From positions 7,878-71,877 of the forward strand of contig CAZOSA010000001.1 of assembly GCA_964582155.1 (NCBI GenBank): DNA of 64,000 bases, in the 5' to 3' direction. A program made the position numbers and the translations under genes. Origin of the DNA: an uncultured Enterobacteriaceae bacterium. GTDB taxonomy: Bacteria > Pseudomonadota > Gammaproteobacteria > Burkholderiales > SG8-39. Below, piece by piece: positions 23,699 through 62,667 of the stretch (the first letter of the stretch is position 1; every line of letters begins with the position of its first letter). The notes beneath the pieces are model-generated. The model searched no databases and had not been told where the DNA came from. It saw nothing but the letters and a program-made list of their open reading frames with translations.

Positions 23699-24574
23699 AT
23701 GCCACGTCCCCTGCGCAAAGCGGTTTTCCCGGTGGCCGGCTTCGGCAGCCGCTTCCTGCCCGCCACCAAGGCGAGCCCGAAGGAAATGCTGCCGATCGTG
23801 GACAAGCCGCTGATCCAGTACGCGGTGGAGGAGGCAGCCGCGGCCGGAATCACCGACTTGATCTTCATCACGGGCCGCAACAAGCGCGCCATCGAGGACC
23901 ACTTCGACACGGCCTATGAGATCGAGTCCGACCTCGAGGCGAAGGGCAAGCGCGCCCTGCTTGAGGTGGTGCAGGGTGTCCTGCCTGCTGGCTGCCGCTG
24001 CATCTACATCCGACAGCCCGAGCAGCTTGGCCTGGGCCACGCGGTGCTGTGCGCCCAGCCGGTGGTCGGCGACGAGCCCTTCGCCGTGCTGCTCGCCGAC
24101 GACCTCATCGATGGACAACCGCCGGCACTGGCGCAGATGGCGCGGCATTTTGCCGCCGAAGGCAGCTCGATTCTCGGCGTGGAGGAAGTCGCCCGCGAAA
24201 ATACTGCAAGCTACGGCATCGTCAGCACGGAGCGACCCGAGGCGCAGCTGAGCGCGATTCGCGCCATCGTCGAGAAACCGAAGCCCGAGGTGGCGCCGTC
24301 GACGCTCGCCGTCGTCGGGCGCTATGTACTGACGCCGCGCGTGTTCGAAAAACTGGCGACCGTAAAACCGGGCAGCGGTGGAGAAATCCAGCTTACCGAC
24401 GCGATCTCCGCGCTGCTGGCGGACGAACGCGTCCTGGCTTATCGCTTTACCGGCAAGCGCTACGACTGCGGCTCCAAACTGGGCTATTTGCAGGCCACGG
24501 TGGAGTTGGGGCTGAAGCATGGTGAAGTCGGCGCGGCGTTCGCGCGTTTCCTCGCTGGACGCCGTGATGCCTGA
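23699..24574 (+). CDS. galU: UTP--glucose-1-phosphate uridylyltransferase
   Basis: ATG 23699 inside ORF 22844..24574 gives [41 protein letters not shown]. Confidence 0.93.
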
Positions 24575-25115
24575 CGTGAAGGCAGCCTGGGAGTTCCTGG
24601 AGAACTCGGACCTGGTCGCAGGCGCGGGAGAAATCCAGAAGGCGATCGAACGCCTGGCCGCAGAGATCACGCAGGCGCTTTCCGGGCAATACCCGCTGGT
24701 CCTGGTCGTCATGGGCGGCGCGGTGGTATTCGCCGGGCAGATGCTGCCCAAGCTGCGTTTCCCGATCGATTTCGACTACGTGCATGCCACCCGGTATGGC
24801 GCAGCGATCCGGGGCGGCGGCATCGACTGGAAGGTGACCCCGCCCGAGGACGTACGCGGGCGCATGGTGCTGTTGCTCGACGACATACTGGATGGCGGCG
24901 AGACCCTGTGCGCCATCCGCGACAGGCTGCTCGCCCTGGGTGCGAGGAAAGTGTACTGCGCGGTGCTGGTGGAGAAGACGCTGGCCCGCGCGAAACCGGT
25001 TACAGCCGACTTCGTCGGCCTGCGCATCCCGGACCGCTTCGTATTCGGCTGCGGCATGGACGCCAAAGGCTACTGGCGCAATCTGCCGGAAATCCGCGCC
25101 ATCAAGGAGCCATGA
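24567..25115 (+). CDS. hpt: hypoxanthine-guanine phosphoribosyltransferase
   Basis: ATG 24567 overlaps the galU end by 8 nt. PRPP-binding motif [14 protein letters not shown]; 182 aa. Confidence 0.85.
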
Positions 25116-25852
25116 TGCTTGCAGTCATAGGCGGCAGCGGCCTGTCGCAGCTCGCCAGCCTCGAAGTCACGCAGCGCAAGGTGGTGCGCACGCCCTATGG
25201 CGAGCCCTCGGGCGCGCTGACCTTTGGCCGCATTCGCGGCAAGACCCTGGTGTTCCTCGCACGTCATGGTTACGGCCACACGGTACCGCCGCATGAAGTC
25301 AATTACCGCGCCAACCTCTGGGCGTTGAAGGAGCAGCAGGTTGCGGGCGTGGTGTCGGTCGCTTCCGTGGGCGGCATCCGCCGCGACGTGGGGCCGGGCG
25401 TGCTGCTGGTTCCCGACCAGATCATCGATTACACCTGGGGGCGGCGCTCCACTTATTTCGAGGGCGCCGGCGCCCCGGTGACGCACATCGATTTCACCGA
25501 GCCGTACACACAGTCCCTGCGCCAGCGCATTCTGGCCGCCGCTGTGGCATGCGGGGAGCGCATCATCGATGGCGGTGTGTACGCCGCGACGCAGGGGCCG
25601 CGTCTGGAGAGCGCGGCCGAGATCAACCGCCTGGAGCGCGACGGCGCGGACATCGTCGGCATGACCGGGATGCCGGAAGCGTCGCTGGCGCGCGAACTGG
25701 ACCTGGATTACGCCGCGGTTGCGGTAAGCGCGAATTTCGCTGCCGGCCGGGGTGATAGCGCGCATTCCATCCCGCTGGAACGCATCGAGGCGGTGCTCGC
25801 CGAGGCCATGGGGCGGGTGCGGCGCATCATCGAACAGCTGATCGCGGCATGA
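25112..25852 (+). CDS. mtnP: S-methyl-5'-thioinosine/thioadenosine phosphorylase (MtnP/MTIP family)
   Basis: ATG 25112 overlaps the hpt stop (ATGA). [14 protein letters not shown].., [49 protein letters not shown]. From memory it closely resembles the Pseudomonas MTI phosphorylase. MTA versus MTI specificity cannot be judged by eye. Confidence 0.85.
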
Positions 25853-51084: not shown

Positions 51085-53530
<2,446 letters not shown>

Positions 53531-53531
53531 G

Positions 53532-54371
53532 CTACTTTCCGGTCCAGCGCGGCGGGCGCTTCTCCACGAACGCGCGCACGCCCTCCCGGAAATCGGCGCT
53601 GCCGTAGGTCTTGGCAACCAGGTCATCGCCGTCGGGCAGGGCGCGGGATTCCTGGATGCGGCGCACTGCTTCCTTGGTGACCCAAAGCGTGATCGGCGCG
53701 TGCGAGGCAATTTTCTCGGCCATCTCCCGCACCCGCGCATCGATCGTCTCGGCAGGTGCAATCTCGTGGACGAAGCCCGCGGCGAGCGCCTCGTCGGCCG
53801 AAAGGAGACGGGCCGTGAAGATCATCTCCTTGAGACGAGATGGCCCGAGAAGGTCCATGTAGCGTGCGTAGTTCTTCATCGACAGGCAGTTACCGAGCGT
53901 GCGGGCAATTGGCGCGCCGAAGCGGGCGTCCGGCGTCGCGATGCGAATATCGGCGCCGGCGGCGATGCCGAAGCCGCCTCCCACCGCGAAACCCTGGATC
54001 TGCGCGATCACCGGCTTTTTGACGCGCGCGATACGGCCCGTGCGTTGGTCGCCGTCGCGCTCGTAGCGCAACCCGTCCTCGGCGCCTTCGAATTTGGTGA
54101 ACTGGCTGATGTCCGTGCCCGCGACAAACGCCTTCCCCCCCGCGCCCTTGAGCACCAGGACGCGGATCGACTCGTCGGCATCGACCTCCTCGCAGGTCTC
54201 GTAGAGCCGCTGGTACATATCCCAGGTCATGGCGTTGCGCGCCTCGGGGCGGTTGAAGGTGACCGTGACGATGGGACCGTCGCGCGTGACAAGCACGTGG
54301 TCGCTGGGCGAAGGGGTGGTTTCCACGGGAAGCAGGGTTCCTCGATTCGGGTTCGGCGGGAATCGTATCAT
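53532..54371 (-). CDS. enoyl-CoA hydratase/isomerase-family protein
   Basis: Crotonase fold motifs NRPEARNAMT, KGAGGKAFVAGTDI and GFAVGGGFGIAAGADIRIA. The start may lie downstream of the annotated ATG. Confidence 0.85.
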   Translation of the reverse strand: MIRFPPNPNRGTLLPVETTPSPSDHVLVTRDGPIVTVTFNRPEARNAMTWDMYQRLYETCEEVDADESIRVLVLKGAGGKAFVAGTDISQFTKFEGAEDGLRYERDGDQRTGRIARVKKPVIAQIQGFAVGGGFGIAAGADIRIATPDARFGAPIARTLGNCLSMKNYARYMDLLGPSRLKEMIFTARLLSADEALAAGFVHEIAPAETIDARVREMAEKIASHAPITLWVTKEAVRRIQESRALPDGDDLVAKTYGSADFREGVRAFVEKRPPRWTGK

Positions 54372-54458
54372 CAGGCGCCGAACGGAGTTATGCTACGGCG
54401 CCCGGGAACAGCAGGCGCTCTTGTCTGCGGGGATTTTTCAATGAGGAGGAACCTTCAG

Positions 54459-55445
54459 ATGTACACACAGCGTCTGCTTTTGGCTTTGGCTCCGTCCATC
54501 GCACTGCTCCTGGCGTGCGCCGGCGATGCACTTGCGCAGGTGAAATACCCGTCGAAGACCGTCGAGGTGGTGGTGCCCTATGCCCCCGGCGGCGGCACCG
54601 ACAACCTGATGCGCATGATCACCGGCATCATGGACGAGAACAAATGGTCCCCGGTGCCGATCAACGTGAACAACCGCGCCGGGGGCAGCGGCGCGGTCGG
54701 CTACACTTACCTGATTAACAAGCGGGGCGATTCCCACGTGGTGGCCGGCGCCACCCCGATGGTCGTCTCGGGCAAGATCGAGGGGCGGCTGTCGGGGAAC
54801 CACCGCGACGGCATGACGATGCTGATGATCGTCGCCATCGACGAGCTCATGCTCACGGTGCGCACCGAGTCGCCATTCAAGACCGTCGACGATTTTGTCA
54901 ACGCCGCGCGCGCCAAGCCCGACCAGCTCACCGTGGGCGGCACCGCCACCTACAGCGAGGACCACATCTTCACCCACCTGTTCGAGCAGGCGGCGAAGAT
55001 CAAGGTGAAGTACGTGCCCTTCAATTCGGGCGGTGAGGTGACGGCGGCACTGATGGGCGGCCACATCGATGCCAGCGTCATGAATCCGAACGAGGTGGTG
55101 GCCCAGGTCGAGGCGGGCAAGGCGAAGAACCTTGCAGTCGCCGCGCGCAAGCGTCTTGCCGACGCCCCGGACGTGCCGACGTTCGCCGAGAAGGGCTACG
55201 AGTTCTATTGGGAGCAGATGCGCGGGGTCGTGGGGCCGGCGAACATGGCGCCCGAGGCGGTGGCCTGGTGGCAGGACACGCTGAGGAAGGTGACCGCGAC
55301 GAAGAAGTGGCAGGATCTGTACATCAAGCGCAATCTGCTGACGCCGACCGCGTGGGTGGGTGACGAAGCCAACAAGTACCTCGACGGCCTCACCGGCAAA
55401 TACCAGAGCGCCCTTGGCGCGCTAGGCGCCCTCAAGAAGAAGTAG
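54459..55445 (+). CDS. tctC: tripartite tricarboxylate transporter substrate-binding protein (Bug/TctC family)
   Basis: ATG 54459 is preceded by GAGGAGGA. Signal peptide MYTQRLLLALAPSIALLLACAGDALA, then KYPSKTVEVVVPYAPGGGTDNLMR, typical of the Bug family. Confidence 0.88.
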   Translation: MYTQRLLLALAPSIALLLACAGDALAQVKYPSKTVEVVVPYAPGGGTDNLMRMITGIMDENKWSPVPINVNNRAGGSGAVGYTYLINKRGDSHVVAGATPMVVSGKIEGRLSGNHRDGMTMLMIVAIDELMLTVRTESPFKTVDDFVNAARAKPDQLTVGGTATYSEDHIFTHLFEQAAKIKVKYVPFNSGGEVTAALMGGHIDASVMNPNEVVAQVEAGKAKNLAVAARKRLADAPDVPTFAEKGYEFYWEQMRGVVGPANMAPEAVAWWQDTLRKVTATKKWQDLYIKRNLLTPTAWVGDEANKYLDGLTGKYQSALGALGALKKK

Positions 55446-55463
55446 GCGCAGGGGCTGCCCACG

Positions 55464-55919
55464 GTGCGCCGCGCCGACCGCATCGCCGGGGCGATGCTGC
55501 TCGCGTTTGCCGTGTCATTCTCTGCGGGCGCACTCAGTCATTACACCTACTCGGGACCGGGCGGCCCGGGGTCGGCGTTCCTGCCGTTCTGGCTGGGCGT
55601 CATCATGTCCCTGCTCGCCGGGCTGCTGCTGGTGGGCGCCCTGCGCTCGCGCGATCCCGGGGCCGAATGGCTGCCCCGGGGCGAGGGGCTCAGGCGGATC
55701 GCCGTGGTGCTGGGCGTCACGATTGCCTTTGTGGCGCTGCTCAATGTTGTGGGCATGATCCTGGGAACGGCACTGTTCCTGATCGTCCTGATGCGAGCCC
55801 TCGATCGCAACCCTTGGCCGCTCACCCTGTCGGTGGCGGCTGCGACCGCCGGGCTCAACTACCTGGTCTTCACCTACTGGCTGCGGGTGCCTTTCCCCGT
55901 GAGCGTGCTCGGGATCTGA
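55464..55919 (+). CDS. tctB: tripartite tricarboxylate transporter TctB-family small membrane subunit
   Basis: 151 aa with about 4 hydrophobic segments, located between tctC and tctA. Confidence 0.78.
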   Translation: MRRADRIAGAMLLAFAVSFSAGALSHYTYSGPGGPGSAFLPFWLGVIMSLLAGLLLVGALRSRDPGAEWLPRGEGLRRIAVVLGVTIAFVALLNVVGMILGTALFLIVLMRALDRNPWPLTLSVAAATAGLNYLVFTYWLRVPFPVSVLGI

Positions 55920-55930
55920 GCGGCGGGCCG

Positions 55931-57454
55931 ATGGACTTTTTCGCCAACCTCACGATGGGCTTCACGGTCGCGCTGACGCCATTCAATCTGCTCATGGCGA
56001 CCGGCGGCGTGACCGTAGGCATTCTGATCGGCGCGCTGCCGGGCATCGGACCGCCTTCTGGGGTCGCGCTGCTGCTGCCGCTCACCTTCGGCATGGAGCC
56101 CACCTCCGGGATCATCATGCTGGCCGCCCTCTACGCGGGCTCGATGTACGGCGGAACCATCACCTCGGTGCTGATCAACACGCCGGGAGAATCCGCATCG
56201 GTCGTCACCTGCCTCGATGGCTACCAGATGGCGCTGCAGGGACGCGCGGGGCCGGCGCTGGGCATCGCTGCAATCGGCTCGTTCATCGCAGGCACGATCG
56301 GCGTGGTCCTCCTGATGCTGGTGTCGCCGGCGCTCGCGCGCTGGTCTCTTTCCTTCGGCCCGCCGGAGACCTTCGCTCTCATGCTGCTCGGTCTCACGAC
56401 GGTCACCTTGCTCACCGGGGATAACGCACTGAAAGGCTATATCAGCATGGTGCTGGGGCTCATGCTCGCCATGGTCGGCTTCGACATCATCTCCGGGGAC
56501 GCGCGCTACGCCTTCGGCATCCCCGAGATGATGGACGGGATGGACTTCCTGCCGGTCGCAATCGGCTTGTTCGGGCTGGGGGAAGTGCTGGCCGGGGCGG
56601 AGGTGGCTGCAGGCAACACCATCCTCCAGGGGCGCTACGGCATTCGGGACGTGTTGCCGAGCGCCAAGGACTGGATGCGCAGCCGCTGGGCCATCGTCCG
56701 CGGCACGGTGCTCGGATTCTCGGTCGGTCTTCTGCCGGGCGCCGGCCCGACCGTCGCGTCGTTCCTTGCCTACACGGTGGAAAAGAAAGTCTCGAGGCAC
56801 CCGCAGGAGTTCGGAAAGGGCGCGATCGAGGGCGTGGCCGGGCCCGAGTCGGCCAACAACGCGGCGGCGACCGGGGCCATGGTCCCGATGCTGACGCTGG
56901 GCATCCCGGGCTCGGCGACGACTGCCATCATGCTCGGCGGCCTGATGATGTGGGGGCTGCGGCCGGGGCCGCTCCTGTTCGAGAAGAACCCCGAGTTCGT
57001 CTGGGGGCTGATCGCCTCGCAGTACATCGCCAACGTCATGCTGCTCGTCCTCAGCACCGCGTTCATCCCGCTGTTCGTGCGGGCGCTGCGGGTTCCCTAC
57101 GCCATCCTCATGCCGCTCATCATTGTCTTCTGCATTACCGGGGCCTATTCGCTGAAGAACAGCGTCTGGGACGTGGGACAGATGCTGGTGTTCGGGGTGC
57201 TCGGTTACGTGATGAAGAAGCTCGGCTACTCGCCTGCCGCCCTGGTACTCGCACTGGTGCTCGGGCCGCTGGCGGAACGCGCGCTGCGCCAGTCCCTGAT
57301 CATCTCCGACGCGGGGCTGGGCATCTTCTTCCTGCGACCCATCGCCGCCGTGCTCACCGTGGCGGCCCTGGCGGCAGTGGCGGTGCCTGTGGTGCGCGCC
57401 ATCCTGGCGGTGGTGCGCGGTCGCAAGCTCGCGGCCGCGTCGGGTGGCGGCTGA
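55931..57454 (+). CDS. tctA: tripartite tricarboxylate transporter permease TctA
   Basis: ATG 55931 inside ORF 55667..57454. MDFFANLTMGFTVALTPFNLL; a 507-aa polytopic membrane protein with GALPGIGP and the GxxxG-rich TctA pattern. Confidence 0.9.
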   Translation: MDFFANLTMGFTVALTPFNLLMATGGVTVGILIGALPGIGPPSGVALLLPLTFGMEPTSGIIMLAALYAGSMYGGTITSVLINTPGESASVVTCLDGYQMALQGRAGPALGIAAIGSFIAGTIGVVLLMLVSPALARWSLSFGPPETFALMLLGLTTVTLLTGDNALKGYISMVLGLMLAMVGFDIISGDARYAFGIPEMMDGMDFLPVAIGLFGLGEVLAGAEVAAGNTILQGRYGIRDVLPSAKDWMRSRWAIVRGTVLGFSVGLLPGAGPTVASFLAYTVEKKVSRHPQEFGKGAIEGVAGPESANNAAATGAMVPMLTLGIPGSATTAIMLGGLMMWGLRPGPLLFEKNPEFVWGLIASQYIANVMLLVLSTAFIPLFVRALRVPYAILMPLIIVFCITGAYSLKNSVWDVGQMLVFGVLGYVMKKLGYSPAALVLALVLGPLAERALRQSLIISDAGLGIFFLRPIAAVLTVAALAAVAVPVVRAILAVVRGRKLAAASGGG

Positions 57455-57500
57455 GGAGATTCAGGCTGGGGTTTCCCGGGCGGTTCGAGTTGGAGCCACC

Positions 57501-58460
57501 CTATACGACGCTCGAGTTCAGGGGCTGAAGCCGTTCCCGGCTGGGAGCCTGCACCACGCCCTTCTCGCAAATGATCGCCGTGATCAGGTCGGCTGGCGTC
57601 ACATCGAACGCCGGGTTTCTTACGGTTATTCCTTCCGGCGCCCAGCGCTGGCCGCGGTAGCCGGTGACTTCATCGGCAGGGCGCTCCTCGATCGGGATCA
57701 TCGAGCCCTCGCTGATGCTGGCGTCGAAGCTCGAGAGCGGCGCGGCCACGTAGAAGGGCAGGCCGTGGCGACGTGCGAGCACCGCGAGCGTGTAGGTGCC
57801 GATCTTGTTCGCCGTGTCGCCGTTGGCCGCGATGCGGTCCGCGCCGACGATCACCAGGTCCACATCCTTGCGGCTCATGAGGTGGCCCGCCATGTTGTCG
57901 GCGATCAGCGTGCACGCAATGCCTTCCTGCATGCATTCCCATGCGGTCAACCGCGCGCCCTGGAGGTAGGGCCTGGTTTCACACGCGATGACTGAAACAT
58001 CCTTGTCGCGCGCCGAACGGATGACGCCCAGCGCCGTGCCGTGACCGGAGGTGGCCAGCGCGCCGGTATTGCAGTAGGTCAGGATGCGGGCGCCCTGCGG
58101 GATCAGCTTCGCGCCATGCGTGCCGATTGCGCGGTTCACGGCGAGGTCTTCGGCGAAGATCGCCTCGGCTTCGGCTTTCTTGTCCGGCGCCCGGCGCATG
58201 CGCTCCAGCGCCCAGAACAGGTTGACGGCCGTGGGCCTGCTTTTTCCGAGGATTTCGTAGGAGGACTCCTCGGGCTGCAGCGCGATACCGAACGCCGCCG
58301 CGCAGCCGATGGCCGGCGCGCCGCGCACCGCCATGTCGCGGATCGCGGCGGCGACGTCAGCAGCGGTCCGGCAGGTCAGGTAGACGATTTGATCCGGCAG
58401 CAAGCGCTGGTCCAGCACTTCCAGCGCATTCCCAGTCCAGCGCAGGGCCTGGACTTTCAC
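57501..58460 (-). CDS. mtnA: S-methyl-5-thioribose-1-phosphate isomerase
   Basis: This is the terminal 319 aa of artefactual ORF 57501..59303. (M)KVQALRWTGNALEVLDQRLLP, VRGAPAIGCAAAFG, CNTGALAT and GADRIAANGDTANKIGTY. The GTG start overlaps the upstream gene's stop (GTGTGA). My manual base count here differed by 1 nt from the ORF track, so I followed the track. Confidence 0.88.
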   Translation of the reverse strand: MKVQALRWTGNALEVLDQRLLPDQIVYLTCRTAADVAAAIRDMAVRGAPAIGCAAAFGIALQPEESSYEILGKSRPTAVNLFWALERMRRAPDKKAEAEAIFAEDLAVNRAIGTHGAKLIPQGARILTYCNTGALATSGHGTALGVIRSARDKDVSVIACETRPYLQGARLTAWECMQEGIACTLIADNMAGHLMSRKDVDLVIVGADRIAANGDTANKIGTYTLAVLARRHGLPFYVAAPLSSFDASISEGSMIPIEERPADEVTGYRGQRWAPEGITVRNPAFDVTPADLITAIICEKGVVQAPSRERLQPLNSSVV

Positions 58461-60427
58461 ACCAGCTTTTCCGTGCCGCCGTCCACCGGCACCTGCGCCG
58501 CCGTGGTCTTGGAAAAGAGCGGACCGCACATCTCGGCGGTGAGCTCGGCCACGTCCTTCGACGACACTTCGGTCCTCAGCAGGTTGTTCCTCTTGTACTG
58601 CTCCACGCTCAGGTTGTAGGCCCTGGCGCGCGAGGCGAGTACCTCGTCGGTCCAGAGCGCCGTGTCGTAGACGGCATTCGGGTGGATGGTGTTGATGCGG
58701 ATGCCGTCCCTGGCCCACTCCAGCGCGGCCACGCGCGCCAGCTGGTTGAGCGCCGCCTTTGACACCGAGTAGGCAGCCGCGCCCATGCCCGGCGCCGGCA
58801 CGTTCTTGGAGCCGATCACCACCACCCGACCGCCGCGTGGCGCGAGCTTGAGCAACCCGTGGCAAGCTTGCATGAGCAGAAGATTCGCATCGACGTTCAC
58901 TGCCATCGCGCTTTTCCACATCTCGGGGGCGATGTCCGTGATCGCCTGCGAGGCGGGAAAGATGCCGGCATTGAGGACCAGCATGTCCACGCCGCCGAAT
59001 CGCTTGACTGCGGCATCCATTGCGGCCTGAATGGCTTTCGCGTCCGTAAGATCGCAAGCGAGGCCCAGGTAATCCTGGCGCTTGAAGAGGTTCACGATTG
59101 CGGGATTGCGGTCCAGGCCAGCCACCGCGGCGCCGCGTTTGAGGAACGCTTCGACGCAGGCTTTGCCGATGCCGGAGGCGGCGCCGGTCACGAGCGCTAC
59201 TTCTCCGGCGAATATCGGCGGGTTGCCGCCTTTGTTCAGCTTGGCCTGCTCGAGGTCCCAGTATTCGATGTCGAACGTGTGCTTGTCCTGCAGCGCGTGC
59301 CATCCGCCGAGTGCTTCGGCGCGCAGGATGACGTCGATGGTGTGCTCGTAGAGGTCTTCGACGATGCCGGTGTCTTTCGCGGTGCGGCCGAACGCGGCAA
59401 AGCCCAGTTCCCGATCGAGCGCCATGCGGGGCGCGCTATCCAGGATGGTCTTGGGTTCCCTGGCCGCCTTCGCATTGCGCTCGAAGTATTCGCGGTATGC
59501 GACGCCGAATCCGGCGACGTCTTTCCCCAGCATGGGCAGCGGCTTGGTGCGGATCACATGGTCCGGCGTGGCCGGCCCGCCCTGCGAGATGCGCGCTACA
59601 TCGGGATGGCGCGCAAAACCGAGGAAGCGCGGCGTGTCGTTGCAGCGGCACAGCAGAGGGAAGCCCGCCAGCGCGGAAACGTCATGGCGCAGACTTGCCG
59701 CTGCCTCGCGCTTGAACGCGGGGGCGGATACGGGCGGCAGGCCGATGCTCCATGCCTTGTGCGCCTGCAGGTATTTCTCGGCCAGCGACACCAGGTCGAT
59801 CATCAGCTCGTAGGACTCGCGCGCATCCGCGCTGAACGAGAACACCCCGTGCGACAGGAGCACCATGCCGACAGTGTTTTTCGTCGCCTGCCGCGGAAAC
59901 TCGCGCGCGCAGTAAGCGGCGAGGTCGAAGCCGGCCATGATGTACGGGATGACCACCACCTTGCTGGCGTAGATGTCGCGGATGCGCTTCTCGCCGTCCG
60001 GCGAGTTTGACACCGAAAGCACCGCATCGGCGTGGGTGTGGTCCACGTACTTGTGCGGCAGGATGGCGTGCAGGATGGTTTCCACCGACGGCGCCGGTGC
60101 GCCTGCGCGCAGCGTATGGGTGGCGAGCTCGTTGACCATCTGCGGATCCGACAGACTGGGCAGCGACGCGAGCCGTCGCACGTAGTCCAGCTTCACCGGA
60201 GAGAATCCGGCCGCTTCGATGGTCTCCATGTCCCAGCCGCTCCCCTTCACGTAGAGGATCTCTTCCTCCTCGGCGAACAGGTTCTTCTCTCGCAGCTTGA
60301 CCGAGGTATTGCCGCCGCCATGCAGCACCAGGGACTTGTCCCGCCCAAGCAGGCGGGAAGTGTAGACGCGCAGCCCGAGCGCGCCGGGGAACTGCGCGGC
60401 TTCGGCTTCATTCCACAGGCTCTTCAT
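58457..60427 (-). CDS. bifunctional class II aldolase/adducin-domain + short-chain dehydrogenase fusion protein
   Basis: ATG 60427 inside ORF 58457..60577. The N-terminal half carries LVLHGGGNTSVKL and DHTHADAVL (class II aldolase-type His ligands). The C-terminal half is an SDR with VALVTGAASGIGKA (TGxxxGxG), NAG, and catalytic YSVSKAALN. Confidence 0.85.
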   Translation of the reverse strand: MKSLWNEAEAAQFPGALGLRVYTSRLLGRDKSLVLHGGGNTSVKLREKNLFAEEEEILYVKGSGWDMETIEAAGFSPVKLDYVRRLASLPSLSDPQMVNELATHTLRAGAPAPSVETILHAILPHKYVDHTHADAVLSVSNSPDGEKRIRDIYASKVVVIPYIMAGFDLAAYCAREFPRQATKNTVGMVLLSHGVFSFSADARESYELMIDLVSLAEKYLQAHKAWSIGLPPVSAPAFKREAAASLRHDVSALAGFPLLCRCNDTPRFLGFARHPDVARISQGGPATPDHVIRTKPLPMLGKDVAGFGVAYREYFERNAKAAREPKTILDSAPRMALDRELGFAAFGRTAKDTGIVEDLYEHTIDVILRAEALGGWHALQDKHTFDIEYWDLEQAKLNKGGNPPIFAGEVALVTGAASGIGKACVEAFLKRGAAVAGLDRNPAIVNLFKRQDYLGLACDLTDAKAIQAAMDAAVKRFGGVDMLVLNAGIFPASQAITDIAPEMWKSAMAVNVDANLLLMQACHGLLKLAPRGGRVVVIGSKNVPAPGMGAAAYSVSKAALNQLARVAALEWARDGIRINTIHPNAVYDTALWTDEVLASRARAYNLSVEQYKRNNLLRTEVSSKDVAELTAEMCGPLFSKTTAAQVPVDGGTEKLV

Positions 60428-60450
60428 GGAGCGAATTATACTTTTGCGCG

Positions 60451-60873
60451 ATGCTCCGAATTGAACTGATGGACTGGCTCGCGGCGCGCGCCGACGCGAG
60501 CCGTATCCGCTTGACGGTGTTCGTCGAAGAACAGCGCGTGCCGCCAGAGATCGAGATGGACGCCCAGGACGCCGCATGCGTGCACGCGCTCGCCTACGCG
60601 CAGGGCAGGGCGGTGGGCACCGGCAGGCTGCTGCCCGACGGTCACATCGGCCGCATGGCGGTACTCAAGGAGTGCCGCTCCCGCGGCGTGGGCGGCGCCA
60701 TCCTCGAACGCCTGATGCAGGAAGCCCGCAACAGGGGCATGAGGCAAGTCGTCCTGTCAGCGCAGACGCACGCCCTCGGGTTCTACCGCAGGCACGGATT
60801 CACGGAGGAGGGCGAAGCCTACGAAGAAGCAGGCCTGCCGCATCAGAAGATGCGGCGCACGCTGAATTCATAG
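60451..60873 (+). CDS. GNAT-family N-acetyltransferase
   Basis: 140 aa with the acetyl-CoA motif RMAVLKECRSRGVGGAILERL and FYRRHGF. Confidence 0.82.
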   Translation: MLRIELMDWLAARADASRIRLTVFVEEQRVPPEIEMDAQDAACVHALAYAQGRAVGTGRLLPDGHIGRMAVLKECRSRGVGGAILERLMQEARNRGMRQVVLSAQTHALGFYRRHGFTEEGEAYEEAGLPHQKMRRTLNS

Positions 60874-61502
60874 CGCAGCGTAGCTTCATCGCCGCCGTCG
60901 CTATCAAAGCTGCGCTCGGCGAAACGCATCCCGTCGCCGTACATCAGCACGCTCGAGCAACGGGTGCCGTAACGCCCGTCGACGATCTTTGCCTTCGCGA
61001 GAACGCCGAACAAGGGTTCCACGGACACCGGACAATCCCGGAATCGCTCCTTGTGTTCCTCGACCTCCGGTGTGTCCAGCAGCAGATTGCCCAGTCCATA
61101 CCATCCAGGCTCGAGCCGCCGGGGCTCGCCGTCGCGATTGGATAGCCACCACAGTTCCGCGCCGTCCGAGGCGAGCAGGTTGAAGCCGCTGAAGGTCGAT
61201 TTTCGTTCCGCCAGCTCCTTTATGGCGACGCCCTCCAGGTAGCGCGTGACGAGCGCGCCGCGCGACTCGGCGGCGCCGGGTTCCGTTGCGCCCCGGTAGT
61301 TGGTGACCGCGGCGAAGCGCCCGCCGCGCGACACCGCCATCCACGTGCCCTGGGCCTGAAGGTCGCGGCCCGCAAGCACCTCGGGATGATCGTCCCAGAA
61401 CGTCGCGCGCGCTGCGGGACGGCCGTGGAACTCGTCGCGGTTGGCGGCAACGACGAGCGGGAAGCGCGCATGCACCTTCCACGCAACGAGGACTAAGCAC
61501 AT
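60843..61502 (-). CDS. NRDE-family protein (DUF833/TANGO2-like)
   Basis: MCLVLVAWKVHARFPLVVAANRDEF has the N-terminal Cys and the NRDE motif. The 3' end overlaps the GNAT gene by 31 nt (convergent). Confidence 0.8.
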   Translation of the reverse strand: MCLVLVAWKVHARFPLVVAANRDEFHGRPAARATFWDDHPEVLAGRDLQAQGTWMAVSRGGRFAAVTNYRGATEPGAAESRGALVTRYLEGVAIKELAERKSTFSGFNLLASDGAELWWLSNRDGEPRRLEPGWYGLGNLLLDTPEVEEHKERFRDCPVSVEPLFGVLAKAKIVDGRYGTRCSSVLMYGDGMRFAERSFDSDGGDEATLRYEFSVRRIF

Positions 61503-61750
61503 ACGAAGCGCTCGACGTGTCGTTCCACGCCGAGTCTTGCGCCCTCACGCTCGAGGAGCGCCTCGAAAGGCCGTTCCTCGCGCACGTCCTCGTACACTTC
61601 CATGTAGGTCGCAGGCTCGTCGCGCCTTCGCATCCAGCGCCCGCGCACACCGGTCGCCGTTTCGATCGTGCGGAAAAGTTGCCGCACCTCTTCCTGCAAC
61701 TGCGAAACGCGGCCCGCTTCGACCCGGTAATAGACGTAGTAGCTCGTCAC
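61493..61750 (-). CDS. small conserved hypothetical protein (DUF4936-like, from memory)
   Basis: This is the terminal 85 aa of artefactual ORF 61493..62521: (M)TSYYVYYRVEAGRVSQLQEEVRQLF...RHVERFVCA. The GTG start overlaps the ygfZ stop (GTGA), and the 3' end overlaps the NRDE start by 10 nt. Confidence 0.6.
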   Translation of the reverse strand: MTSYYVYYRVEAGRVSQLQEEVRQLFRTIETATGVRGRWMRRRDEPATYMEVYEDVREERPFEALLEREGARLGVERHVERFVCA

Positions 61751-62667
61751 GCCGCGTAGGGCAGGGGCAACAACTCGAGTTGCGGCCCGTCGGCGGCGCC
61801 GAGCCGGATCGGACTGGCGCTCTCCAGCGAGCTGATTTGCACAACGGCTAACACCTCGGTACCGCCTGCCGGCGCCGGCGCGGCATTGACGACCGTGCCG
61901 CTCGCCTGACCGGGCAGGGCGGCGGCATACAGTTCGCTGCCAGGCGCCGCCGCAGCGGCGACACGTGCGCGCACCATGCGGCGCTTGAGTACCCCGCGAT
62001 ACTGGGTGCGTGCCACAATTTCCTGCCCTGGGTAACAACCCTTCTTGAAATCGACTCCGCCCAGGCGCTCGAGATTCACCATCTGCGGCACGAACAGGTC
62101 CTGGGTAGCCTGCACCACCAGCGGGCGGCCGGCGCGGATCTCCTCCAGAGCCCAAACCTCGTCGCCGGCGTCGCCCAGTGCATCGAGTAGACGCCCGCGC
62201 TGCGTCACCGGCGCCACCAGCAGGAAGCGCTGCTCGGAAACCCGCACCACCGTCACATCGGCCGCACGCCCGACCGCGAGATCCGCTTCGGGCACCGCGA
62301 ATCCCAGCGCCGCCAGGCGCCCAGCGGACTGCGGTCCCCAGAGTCCGACCTGCACCCACGATTCGCTGGCGTCGACGAGTTTCGCCTTGGCGCGCAGGAT
62401 GAACATGGACAGGCGCTTGGCGATGGCCGGCGCGATGTCGCGCGAAAGTTGCAGAAGAAATCCGCCCGCCTGCGGCACGACGAGAAAGTTCGCCAGCAGC
62501 CGGCCCTTCGCAGAACACCAACCAGCATTGCGCGCACGATCCTGCGCCAGCCCCGACACATCGCTGGTCAGCTGTGCATGCAGGAATTCACGCGCCTCCT
62601 CGCCCGTGCACGACAACAGGCCGAGCCGCCTCAGTTCCGCCGCGGCGTGGGAAACCTTGGTGTCCAT
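61747..62667 (-). CDS. ygfZ: folate-binding Fe/S-cluster repair/tRNA-modification protein YgfZ (CAF17 family)
   Basis: 306 aa with the family signature FKKGCYPGQEIVART. Confidence 0.88.
   Translation of the reverse strand: MDTKVSHAAAELRRLGLLSCTGEEAREFLHAQLTSDVSGLAQDRARNAGWCSAKGRLLANFLVVPQAGGFLLQLSRDIAPAIAKRLSMFILRAKAKLVDASESWVQVGLWGPQSAGRLAALGFAVPEADLAVGRAADVTVVRVSEQRFLLVAPVTQRGRLLDALGDAGDEVWALEEIRAGRPLVVQATQDLFVPQMVNLERLGGVDFKKGCYPGQEIVARTQYRGVLKRRMVRARVAAAAAPGSELYAAALPGQASGTVVNAAPAPAGGTEVLAVVQISSLESASPIRLGAADGPQLELLPLPYAA

Follow-up and report, generated by a model that had tools for sequence, protein, structure and literature searches.

In a 64,000-nucleotide stretch of contig CAZOSA010000001.1 (assembly GCA_964582155.1) from an uncultured soil betaproteobacterium of the Burkholderiales, referred to here in its entirety as the window, a gene for a protein that fuses a class II aldolase-type domain to a short-chain dehydrogenase/reductase (SDR) lies immediately before mtnA, the gene for S-methyl-5-thioribose-1-phosphate isomerase. 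By analogy with characterized systems, the fusion and MtnA probably form a variant of the dihydroxyacetone phosphate (DHAP) shunt in which the aldolase and an NAD-type SDR are joined in one chain. The two genes would encode the later steps of a DHAP-shunt-type pathway for 5'-methylthioadenosine (MTA) and probably also for 5'-deoxyadenosine, both by-products of S-adenosylmethionine (SAM). These compounds are unavoidable and inhibitory products of SAM chemistry, and every cell needs a route for their disposal. In the proposed pathway, the nucleoside would be deaminated and then phosphorolysed by S-methyl-5'-thioinosine (MTI) phosphorylase to 5-methylthioribose-1-phosphate (MTR-1-P) or 5-deoxyribose-1-phosphate, which MtnA would isomerize to the corresponding ribulose-1-phosphate (5-methylthioribulose-1-phosphate [MTRu-1-P] in the first case). 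The zinc-type class II aldolase domain would then yield DHAP plus 2-(methylthio)acetaldehyde or acetaldehyde, and the fused NAD-type SDR would convert the reactive aldehyde on the spot, most likely by oxidation to the acid, by analogy with RhaW, or alternatively by reduction to the alcohol. What the aldolase domain cleaves, that it does so by aldol chemistry, and what the SDR acts on and in which direction are inferred from such analogies and from gene context.

The open reading frame of the fusion runs on the minus strand from an ATG at 60427 to a TGA at 58459-58457. The preliminary description, made from the letters of the window, had quoted four motifs in a 656-residue aldolase/SDR fusion, and all four were located: LVLHGGGNTSVKL at residues 33-45, DHTHADAV at 129-136, TGAASGIGKA at 414-423, and YSVSK at 553-557. 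Pfam domain analysis matched residues 21-219 to Aldolase_II (PF00596; 66.7 bits) and residues 410-593 to adh_short (144 bits); adh_short_C2 was matched too, and the classical SDR span covers residues 410-652. Aldolase/SDR fusions are split by NCBIfam into about a dozen equivalogs. The protein scored 1028 bits against NF006196 (PRK08324.2-4, bifunctional aldolase/short-chain dehydrogenase), above the curated cutoff of 831, with residues 1-655 aligned to positions 1-656 of the 657 in the model. Against TIGR02632 (RhaD_aldol-ADH), the model for RhaEW, it scored 400.3 bits, below the curated cutoff of 567.75. On these scores, the protein is a member of NF006196 and lies outside the RhaEW equivalog. 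A protein homologue search yielded only relatives of at least 80% identity, together with the names in use in public databases, namely, "bifunctional aldolase/short-chain dehydrogenase" (NCBI) and "rhamnose utilization protein RhaD" (JGI).

Invariant columns were taken from an alignment of 28 members of 57 to 82% identity. In the aldolase domain, these were H36-GGGNTS, K61-G-S-G, E116, H130, H132, and H193, and their motif positions suggest that E116, H130, H132, and H193 serve as the acid/base Glu and the metal ligands. The features of the PF00596 superfamily (a domain match, a conserved Glu, and three His residues) are all found in the fusion, and the same residues are invariant in shorter relatives that lack the SDR. 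In the SDR domain, TGxxxGIG (414-421), D439, NAG (486-488), N511, S540, Y553, and K557 were invariant, so that the glycine motif TGxxxGxG, the NAG motif, and the catalytic N-S-Y-K set of classical SDRs are all in place. Classical SDRs that prefer NAD to NADP carry an acidic residue after beta-2; D439, an acidic residue at the end of beta-2, points to an NAD-type preference. Judged by these alignments, the catalytic residue sets of both domains are intact. The central domain that joins them has invariants of its own, GPxTPxH..TK (284-295), R334, H362, R369, and Y389, which are kept in the SDR-less forms, and it could couple the aldolase and SDR sites.

The stop codon of the fusion had been reported to overlap the GTG start of an MTR-1-P isomerase gene, and this was borne out. 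The TGA of the fusion and the GTG of mtnA (58460-58458) share a 4-nucleotide GTGA overlap, an arrangement read here as translational coupling. MtnA scored 414 bits against TIGR00512 (cutoff, 279) and 424 bits against NF004326; the ribose-1,5-bisphosphate isomerase model TIGR00511 gave 160 bits against a cutoff of 314, the MtnA model also fitted better than the eIF-2B models, and mtnA is the sole IF-2B family gene in the assembly. The end of the fusion and the start of mtnA abut likewise in the closest relatives, and gaps of 0 to 30 nucleotides separate them in most others. In family f1, to which this genome belongs, MtnA is about 29 residues shorter than in the other families of the order (319 compared with about 345 residues), which shows as one gap in tblastn alignments. 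The MTI/MTA phosphorylase gene noted earlier, 32 kb from the fusion-mtnA pair, proved to be of the MTI type: its product scored 394 bits against NF006599 (cutoff, 223) and 267 bits against the MTA phosphorylase model TIGR01694, just under the cutoff of 275. This phosphorylase is the likely supplier of MTR-1-P.

The assembly is a metagenome-assembled genome (MAG) of 2.66 Mb in 450 contigs and is 87% complete. The window had been said to hold no mtnB, mtnC, or mtnD, and a search for these genes and ald2 across the genome had been suggested. MtnC and ARD/MtnD had no match in the window or in the assembly, and a RuBisCO-like protein and MtnK had none in the assembly. For MtnB (TIGR03328; cutoff, 137), the best match in the genome was another gene, at 48.5 bits, and the fusion was not among the matches. 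Six other class II aldolase-fold genes are present, five encoding proteins of about 255 residues of the PRK07044/PRK06486 type and one encoding OtnC (3-oxo-tetronate-4-phosphate decarboxylase); no FucA/Ald2-type aldolase was found among these six standalone genes. (The five paralogous "aldolase II superfamily" genes of about 255 residues lie on contigs C260, C25, C131, C90, and C120 [L001, L002, and L004-L006].) Within this genome, of which 13% is missing, the fusion is the only visible candidate consumer of the product of MtnA. The canonical methionine salvage pathway shares MtnA and the substrate MTRu-1-P with the proposed route, and its MtnB has the same fold as the aldolase domain; it differs in its reliance on MtnB, MtnC, and MtnD, none of which was found here.

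The gene neighborhoods of the fusion were surveyed in a fixed set of 201 genomes from the same GTDB order, which was searched four times; related genomes in this set are not independent of each other. MtnA was above cutoff in 110 of the 201 genomes and MtnB in 2, which argues that the fate of MtnA's product is mostly noncanonical in this order. NF006196 was above cutoff in 27 genomes, plus a few fragments cut by contig ends. Thirty fusion loci were retrieved, of which 2 were too short to judge, and mtnA lay in the fusion's own cluster at 26 of the 28 evaluable loci, a recurrent linkage of the kind that the preliminary description had proposed to look for with mtnA and mtnP. It was directly downstream on the same strand at 22 loci and directly upstream at 1; at 3 more (G043, G149, and G062), the fusion was followed by a PNP_UDP_1 phosphorylase gene, in some cases a Pribosyltran gene, and then mtnA. 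At one of the remaining loci (G084), a phosphorylase gene adjoins the fusion and mtnA is 28 kb away; at the other, the fusion is unlinked. The Pribosyltran family found between mtnP and mtnA in the fusion-mtnP-apt-mtnA clusters of other genomes is also that of the purine phosphoribosyltransferase gene abutting the phosphorylase gene in the window. Since the adjacency recurs across many families, the pairing of the fusion with mtnA is not due to chance. The block formed by the upstream GNAT and TANGO2 genes, the fusion, and mtnA was syntenic in 63 of 71 evaluable contigs of close relatives, nearly all of them from uncultured soil or freshwater MAGs of the Burkholderiales/Betaproteobacteria; such synteny reflects shared ancestry and adds little. 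mtnA was present in every fusion genome checked unless the genome was incomplete, including all five genomes (gammaproteobacterial and Burkholderiales MAGs) in which the fusion is unlinked to it. Two genomes without mtnA (G124 and G164) carry full-length fusions, and these belong to another subfamily (about 400 bits).

In 16 further genomes of the order sample, the position directly before mtnA is taken by a short form that lacks the SDR or has a degenerate one and covers the first 390 to 500 or so positions of NF006196. Three of these were studied closely (L125:3880-5382, L129:5141-6682, and L130:3384-4565; their lengths, in ascending order, are 393, 500, and 513 residues). Each had NF006196 as its best NCBIfam match, matched Aldolase_II, had no SDR match, and retained the invariants of the aldolase and central domains. 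At the C terminus of the two longer ones is a remnant that can be aligned with the first part of the SDR but lacks the glycine motif; by this alignment it is a decayed SDR, which suggests that the fused state is older than the short forms. In a tree of the N-terminal halves, the short forms and a sister subfamily from family f105 (see below) fell on long branches. Since the SDR-less forms keep the aldolase and central domains before mtnA, the aldolase part, together with the central domain, appears to be what MtnA chiefly works with, and the SDR appears to be an accessory that can be dispensed with. Loss of the SDR is the pattern expected if its only task is to detoxify an aldehyde for which other dehydrogenases can also serve. 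In one genome (G099:C110:27145-29630), both genes of the pair carry in-frame stops (one TAG in the short form and one TAA in the adjacent mtnA), which may reflect joint decay of the pair.

In another 42 genomes of the order sample, the gene next to mtnA, in most cases immediately downstream of it, is the best-scoring Aldolase_II gene and encodes a FucA-like protein of about 215 residues. Published descriptions of the DHAP shunt give the same mtnA-ald2 arrangement (PMC5893883; PMC13474568). Five FucA-like genes were profiled, four directly beside mtnA and the fifth an unlinked standalone gene from G187 (genus g45). They scored 205 to 236 bits against NF005984, about 188 bits against the ribulose-1-phosphate aldolase model, and 62 to 77 bits against the MtnB model (cutoff, 137), on which a true MtnB from G117 scored 176 bits. 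Among the matches listed (150 of the 424 Aldolase_II matches), none of the 42 Ald2-type genomes was also one of the roughly 50 that carry a fusion or short form. Families f29 and f60 each contain genera with the one solution and genera with the other (fusion or Ald2 type); within genus g45, the fusion cluster occurs in one genome, and the others have a FucA-like aldolase gene that stands alone, away from mtnA. Beside mtnA, the fusion thus occupies the position of the small Ald2-type aldolase. Together with the conserved linkage to mtnA, mtnP, and apt, the score below the RhaEW cutoff, and the searches of this genome that found no MtnB/C/D or rhamnose genes, this replacement supports the earlier suggestion that the fusion may perform an aldolase and an aldehyde-redox step after MtnA. 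The MtnA proteins differ between the two arrangements as well, with TIGR00512 scores of about 437 to 467 bits when linked to the fusion and about 385 to 425 bits when linked to Ald2.

The DHAP shunt is known from Rhodospirillum rubrum, Rhodopseudomonas palustris, extraintestinal Escherichia coli, and Bacillus thuringiensis. Two entry variants have been described, MtnP or MtnN plus MtnK, each followed by MtnA and the aldolase Ald2/DrdA (PMC5893883; PMC13474568). The arrangement described here has in common with it a phosphorylase and MtnA, the same position of the aldolase gene relative to mtnA, the predicted products (DHAP plus an aldehyde), and a genome in which the canonical MtnB/C/D route was not found; MtnK-MtnA genes stand beside the sister subfamily. 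It differs in that entry would be by an MTI-type rather than an MTA-type phosphorylase and in that a remote RhaE-type domain, an extra central domain, and an SDR take the place of the FucA-like Ald2/DrdA of about 215 residues. In the known shunt, the enzyme that converts (reduces) the aldehyde is a separate one, still listed as unidentified in a 2026 review (PMC13474568). In the openly readable reviews and primary papers, we found no description of an aldolase-SDR fusion in the salvage of MTA or 5'-deoxyadenosine.

The closest characterized relatives are the RhaEW proteins (B. subtilis YuxG and Chloroflexus aurantiacus Caur_2283), in which an L-rhamnulose-1-phosphate aldolase is fused to an L-lactaldehyde dehydrogenase. 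Both kinds of protein carry an aldolase domain, a central (linker) domain, and a C-terminal NAD-type SDR in one chain that can be aligned over its full length, and for both the sequence of events is (or, for the fusion, is predicted to be) cleavage of a deoxy-ketose-1-phosphate followed by removal of the aldehyde. In vitro, RhaEW converts L-rhamnulose-1-phosphate to DHAP and L-lactate with NAD+, is inactive with NADH, and forms no product without NAD+ (PMC3870299). An oxidative, channeled form of the DHAP shunt, in which a single protein would cleave the sugar phosphate and then oxidize the aldehyde with NAD+, in the manner of RhaW, to yield 2-(methylthio)acetate or acetate, is a tentative extension that we regard as possible rather than probable. 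RhaEW-type proteins are encoded in rhamnose utilization loci of genomes with a rhamnose isomerase and kinase (PMC3870299). The fusion belongs to a different equivalog, and in the genomes surveyed here its linkage was never to rha genes but to mtnA, mtnP, and apt.

A sample of 301 genomes from the phylum was searched as well. NF006196 was above cutoff in 40 of them, most from family f90 of another class, with genomes of about 2 Mb, and 36 of the other 39 carriers also have mtnA. In family f105, the sister subfamily (about 535 bits) lies 5 to 9 kb from mtnK-mtnA (MtnK, 512 bits; cutoff, 275). The cluster at L171 (G317:C1:635000-650000) comprises an AsnC regulator, mtnA, mtnK, a sugar-type ABC transporter (ATPase, permease, and binding protein), the sister fusion, and a SorC-type regulator. 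The same spacing recurs in at least seven genomes of genus g197, which have a second, more RhaEW-like fusion elsewhere. From its gene content, the L171-type cluster is a candidate island for the uptake and catabolism of 5-deoxyribose or methylthioribose (5-deoxypentoses), with the fusion in the place of the aldolase. In the tree of N-terminal halves, the fusions in mtnP clusters of four families and of one genome from another class (L126, L127, L128, L131, and L170) formed one well-supported clade, which suggests horizontal transfer of the whole cluster.

Several observations weigh against a DHAP-shunt function. The linkage to mtnA is not universal, being absent from most members of f90 and from some gammaproteobacterial MAGs, though mtnA is present in those genomes. 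In f90, the fusion has a housekeeping context, with lnt, gpsA, and smr on one side and DUF2782 and thiE on the other, and mtnA or the mtnP phosphorylase gene lies within 1.5 kb at only 3 of 19 loci; since mtnA is near universal in that family, its co-occurrence there is weak evidence. The absences in the genome under study are provisional, with 13% of it missing, and the zero overlap with Ald2-type genomes is that of the 150 matches listed. L-Rhamnulose-1-phosphate is 3R,4S and MTRu-1-P is 3R,4R, like fuculose-1-phosphate, so that the expected substrate of the fusion has a C4 configuration opposite to that of the RhaEW substrate, and C4 would have to be recognized differently in this subfamily. 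For the whole subfamily, the predicted function of the fusion is drawn from genes.

Structure comparison belongs on the same side of the balance. The AlphaFold2 model of the whole fusion had a mean predicted local distance difference test score (pLDDT) of 86.5 and a predicted template modeling score of 0.86, and a model of residues 1-401 had a pLDDT of 91.2. In a phmmer search of all PDB chains, the sole sequence match of the aldolase domain was 3m4r (148 bits, about 40% identity), and FucA, RhaD, MtnB, and DrdA gave no match to it even at an E value of ≤10; by sequence, the domain is a deep branch too remote for a joint tree with these four. Its closest solved structure is 3m4r also by fold (Z score, 30.6; root mean square deviation, 1.8 over 212 residues), but this is the isolated N-terminal class II aldolase domain of a conserved Thermoplasma acidophilum protein that is functionally uncharacterized and gives no functional information on the fusion. 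Fold Z scores were 18.2 for FucA (2opi), 17.0 for APIP/MtnB (4m6r), 16.5 for RhaD (1gt7), and 16.1 for AraD, with YgbL likewise between 16 and 18; on the model, the fold assigns the domain to the class II aldolase superfamily and to nothing finer, and this tie leaves room for a dehydratase or an epimerase. Since sequence and fold are uninformative as to aldolase or dehydratase, the chemistry is assigned from the homology to RhaEW and from gene context. Foldseek searches with the full model returned mostly SDRs, with FabG-like SDRs at a TMt of about 0.8. The central domain has no Pfam match, and its best structural match had a Z score of 3.6 in a comparison that barely covered it.

Three other readings were weighed. 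It is unlikely, though worth keeping in mind, that the protein partners MtnA by a different chemistry or acts on a different 5-substituted ribulose-1-phosphate, for example, by AraD-like epimerization, by redox isomerization at the SDR, or with the central domain as a third catalytic site. AraD and same-fold decarboxylases score level with the aldolases in the comparison above, invariant His, Lys, Arg, and Asp residues occur in the central domain, which has no known fold match, and MtnA-family isomerases accept several 5-substituted ribose-1-phosphates (PMC6079011). No positive evidence favors any specific alternative of this kind, however, and aldol cleavage is the simpler explanation of the precedent set by RhaEW and of the fusion's taking the place of Ald2. 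It is improbable that the aldolase-fold domain is an MtnB-like dehydratase acting on MTRu-1-P, with the SDR reducing the resulting diketone or enol, which would mean a new, oxygen-independent continuation of methionine salvage. The fold and the constellation of one Glu and three His residues are common to MtnB/APIP, linkage to mtnA fits a dehydratase equally well, and with MtnC and MtnD not found its product would need a new fate; but the closest characterized relative is an aldolase coupled to aldehyde oxidation, the MtnB models miss the fusion, sister genomes have FucA-like aldolases and not MtnB at its position, and where SDR-less forms stand beside mtnA, nothing known would be there to consume the unstable diketone. 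Least probable is an RhaEW-type or other deoxy-sugar-phosphate aldolase/dehydrogenase (for rhamnulose-1-phosphate, fuculose-1-phosphate, or similar) that is next to mtnA incidentally, since the JGI name, the TIGR02632 match across the full length, and the loci away from mtnA in f90 and some gammaproteobacterial MAGs are set against a score short of the RhaEW cutoff (568) but above that of NF006196, an 87%-complete genome with no match to either type of rhamnose isomerase (PF06134 and TIGR02629) and no sugar genes flanking the fusion (its neighbors are GNAT, TANGO2, TctA/TctC, and mtnA), a linkage to mtnA, mtnP, and apt that recurs in many families, the exclusion of the small Ald2-type aldolase among the matches listed, the presence of mtnA in every fusion genome checked, incomplete ones aside, and the assignment of the fusions in mtnA-less genomes to another subfamily. 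The preliminary description had named two findings that would speak against a salvage role, a clustering with rhamnose/fucose-catabolic RhaEW enzymes by phylogeny and genomic context with no activity on MTRu-1-P, and a complete mtnBCD set elsewhere together with an unconserved mtnA linkage; neither was encountered. A DHAP-shunt variant with a fused aldolase and SDR is the reading that we favor.

TABLE 1 Coordinates of the fusion gene, its domains, and associated genes in the window
Feature	Position	Strand	Evidence
Aldolase/central domain/SDR fusion gene, 656 aa	58457..60427	-	Open reading frame and translation, stop codon included
Class II aldolase-fold domain, residues 1-228	59744..60427	-	PF00596; invariants; structure comparison
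Central alpha/beta domain, residues 229-405, no Pfam family	59213..59743	-	Conservation; confident model
Classical SDR domain, residues 406-656	58460..59212	-	adh_short and adh_short_C2; invariants; Foldseek
GTGA overlap, fusion stop/mtnA start	58457..58460	-	Sequence read ctgGTGTGAaag
mtnA, S-methyl-5-thioribose-1-phosphate isomerase, 319 aa, GTG start	57501..58460	-	TIGR00512; NF004326
S-Methyl-5'-thioinosine (MTI) phosphorylase gene	25112..25852	+	NF006599, 394 bits (cutoff, 223)
Purine phosphoribosyltransferase gene (base salvage), abuts phosphorylase gene	24519..25115	+	Pfam Pribosyltran, 71.6 bits

The surroundings of the two genes were also inspected. An apparent 415-bp gap 5' of the fusion was rejected, as it is occupied by a conserved, divergently transcribed gene for a GNAT acetyltransferase of 140 residues (60451-60873, plus strand; Acetyltransf_10, 71.7 bits). 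Its start codon is 23 bp from that of the fusion, and 71 of 80 related contigs keep the gene in this place. It may be linked to the metabolism of polyamines or of SAM by-products. Within the 23-bp divergent spacer, a perfect TATAAT (60435-60440, minus strand) stands 7 nucleotides 5' of the fusion ATG, so that the fusion-mtnA transcript may be leaderless or nearly so. A consensus scan called no promoter, and no good -35 element is present. A search of 57000-62000 with Rfam found no riboswitch or other RNA element at an E value of ≤1. A TANGO2/NRDE-family gene (60843-61502, minus strand; PF05742, 158 bits) converges on the GNAT gene and stays 5' of the fusion in most related contigs, including L122 at only 35% identity. 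On the other side, genes for a tripartite tricarboxylate transporter (a TctC-type receptor and TctA; 53466-57454, plus strand) run toward mtnA on the opposite strand and stop 47 nucleotides short of its 3' end. The TctC open reading frame of 659 residues is probably overextended, as the domain covers residues 398-617 only.

If the tentative oxidative, channeled form of the shunt is correct, the aldehyde step would be a built-in domain, and the module would be widespread in the Pseudomonadota, hidden under a rhamnose label. On the favored reading, a fused SDR domain would give that step a concrete candidate activity. Of the MtnA-bearing genomes in the order sample, about 45% (roughly 50 of 110) would rely on the fusion or an SDR-less relative for the step after MtnA. 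The name "rhamnose utilization protein RhaD" would then be a misannotation to be corrected in thousands of environmental genomes, and metabolic models of how soil and aquatic bacteria salvage sulfur and carbon would be affected.

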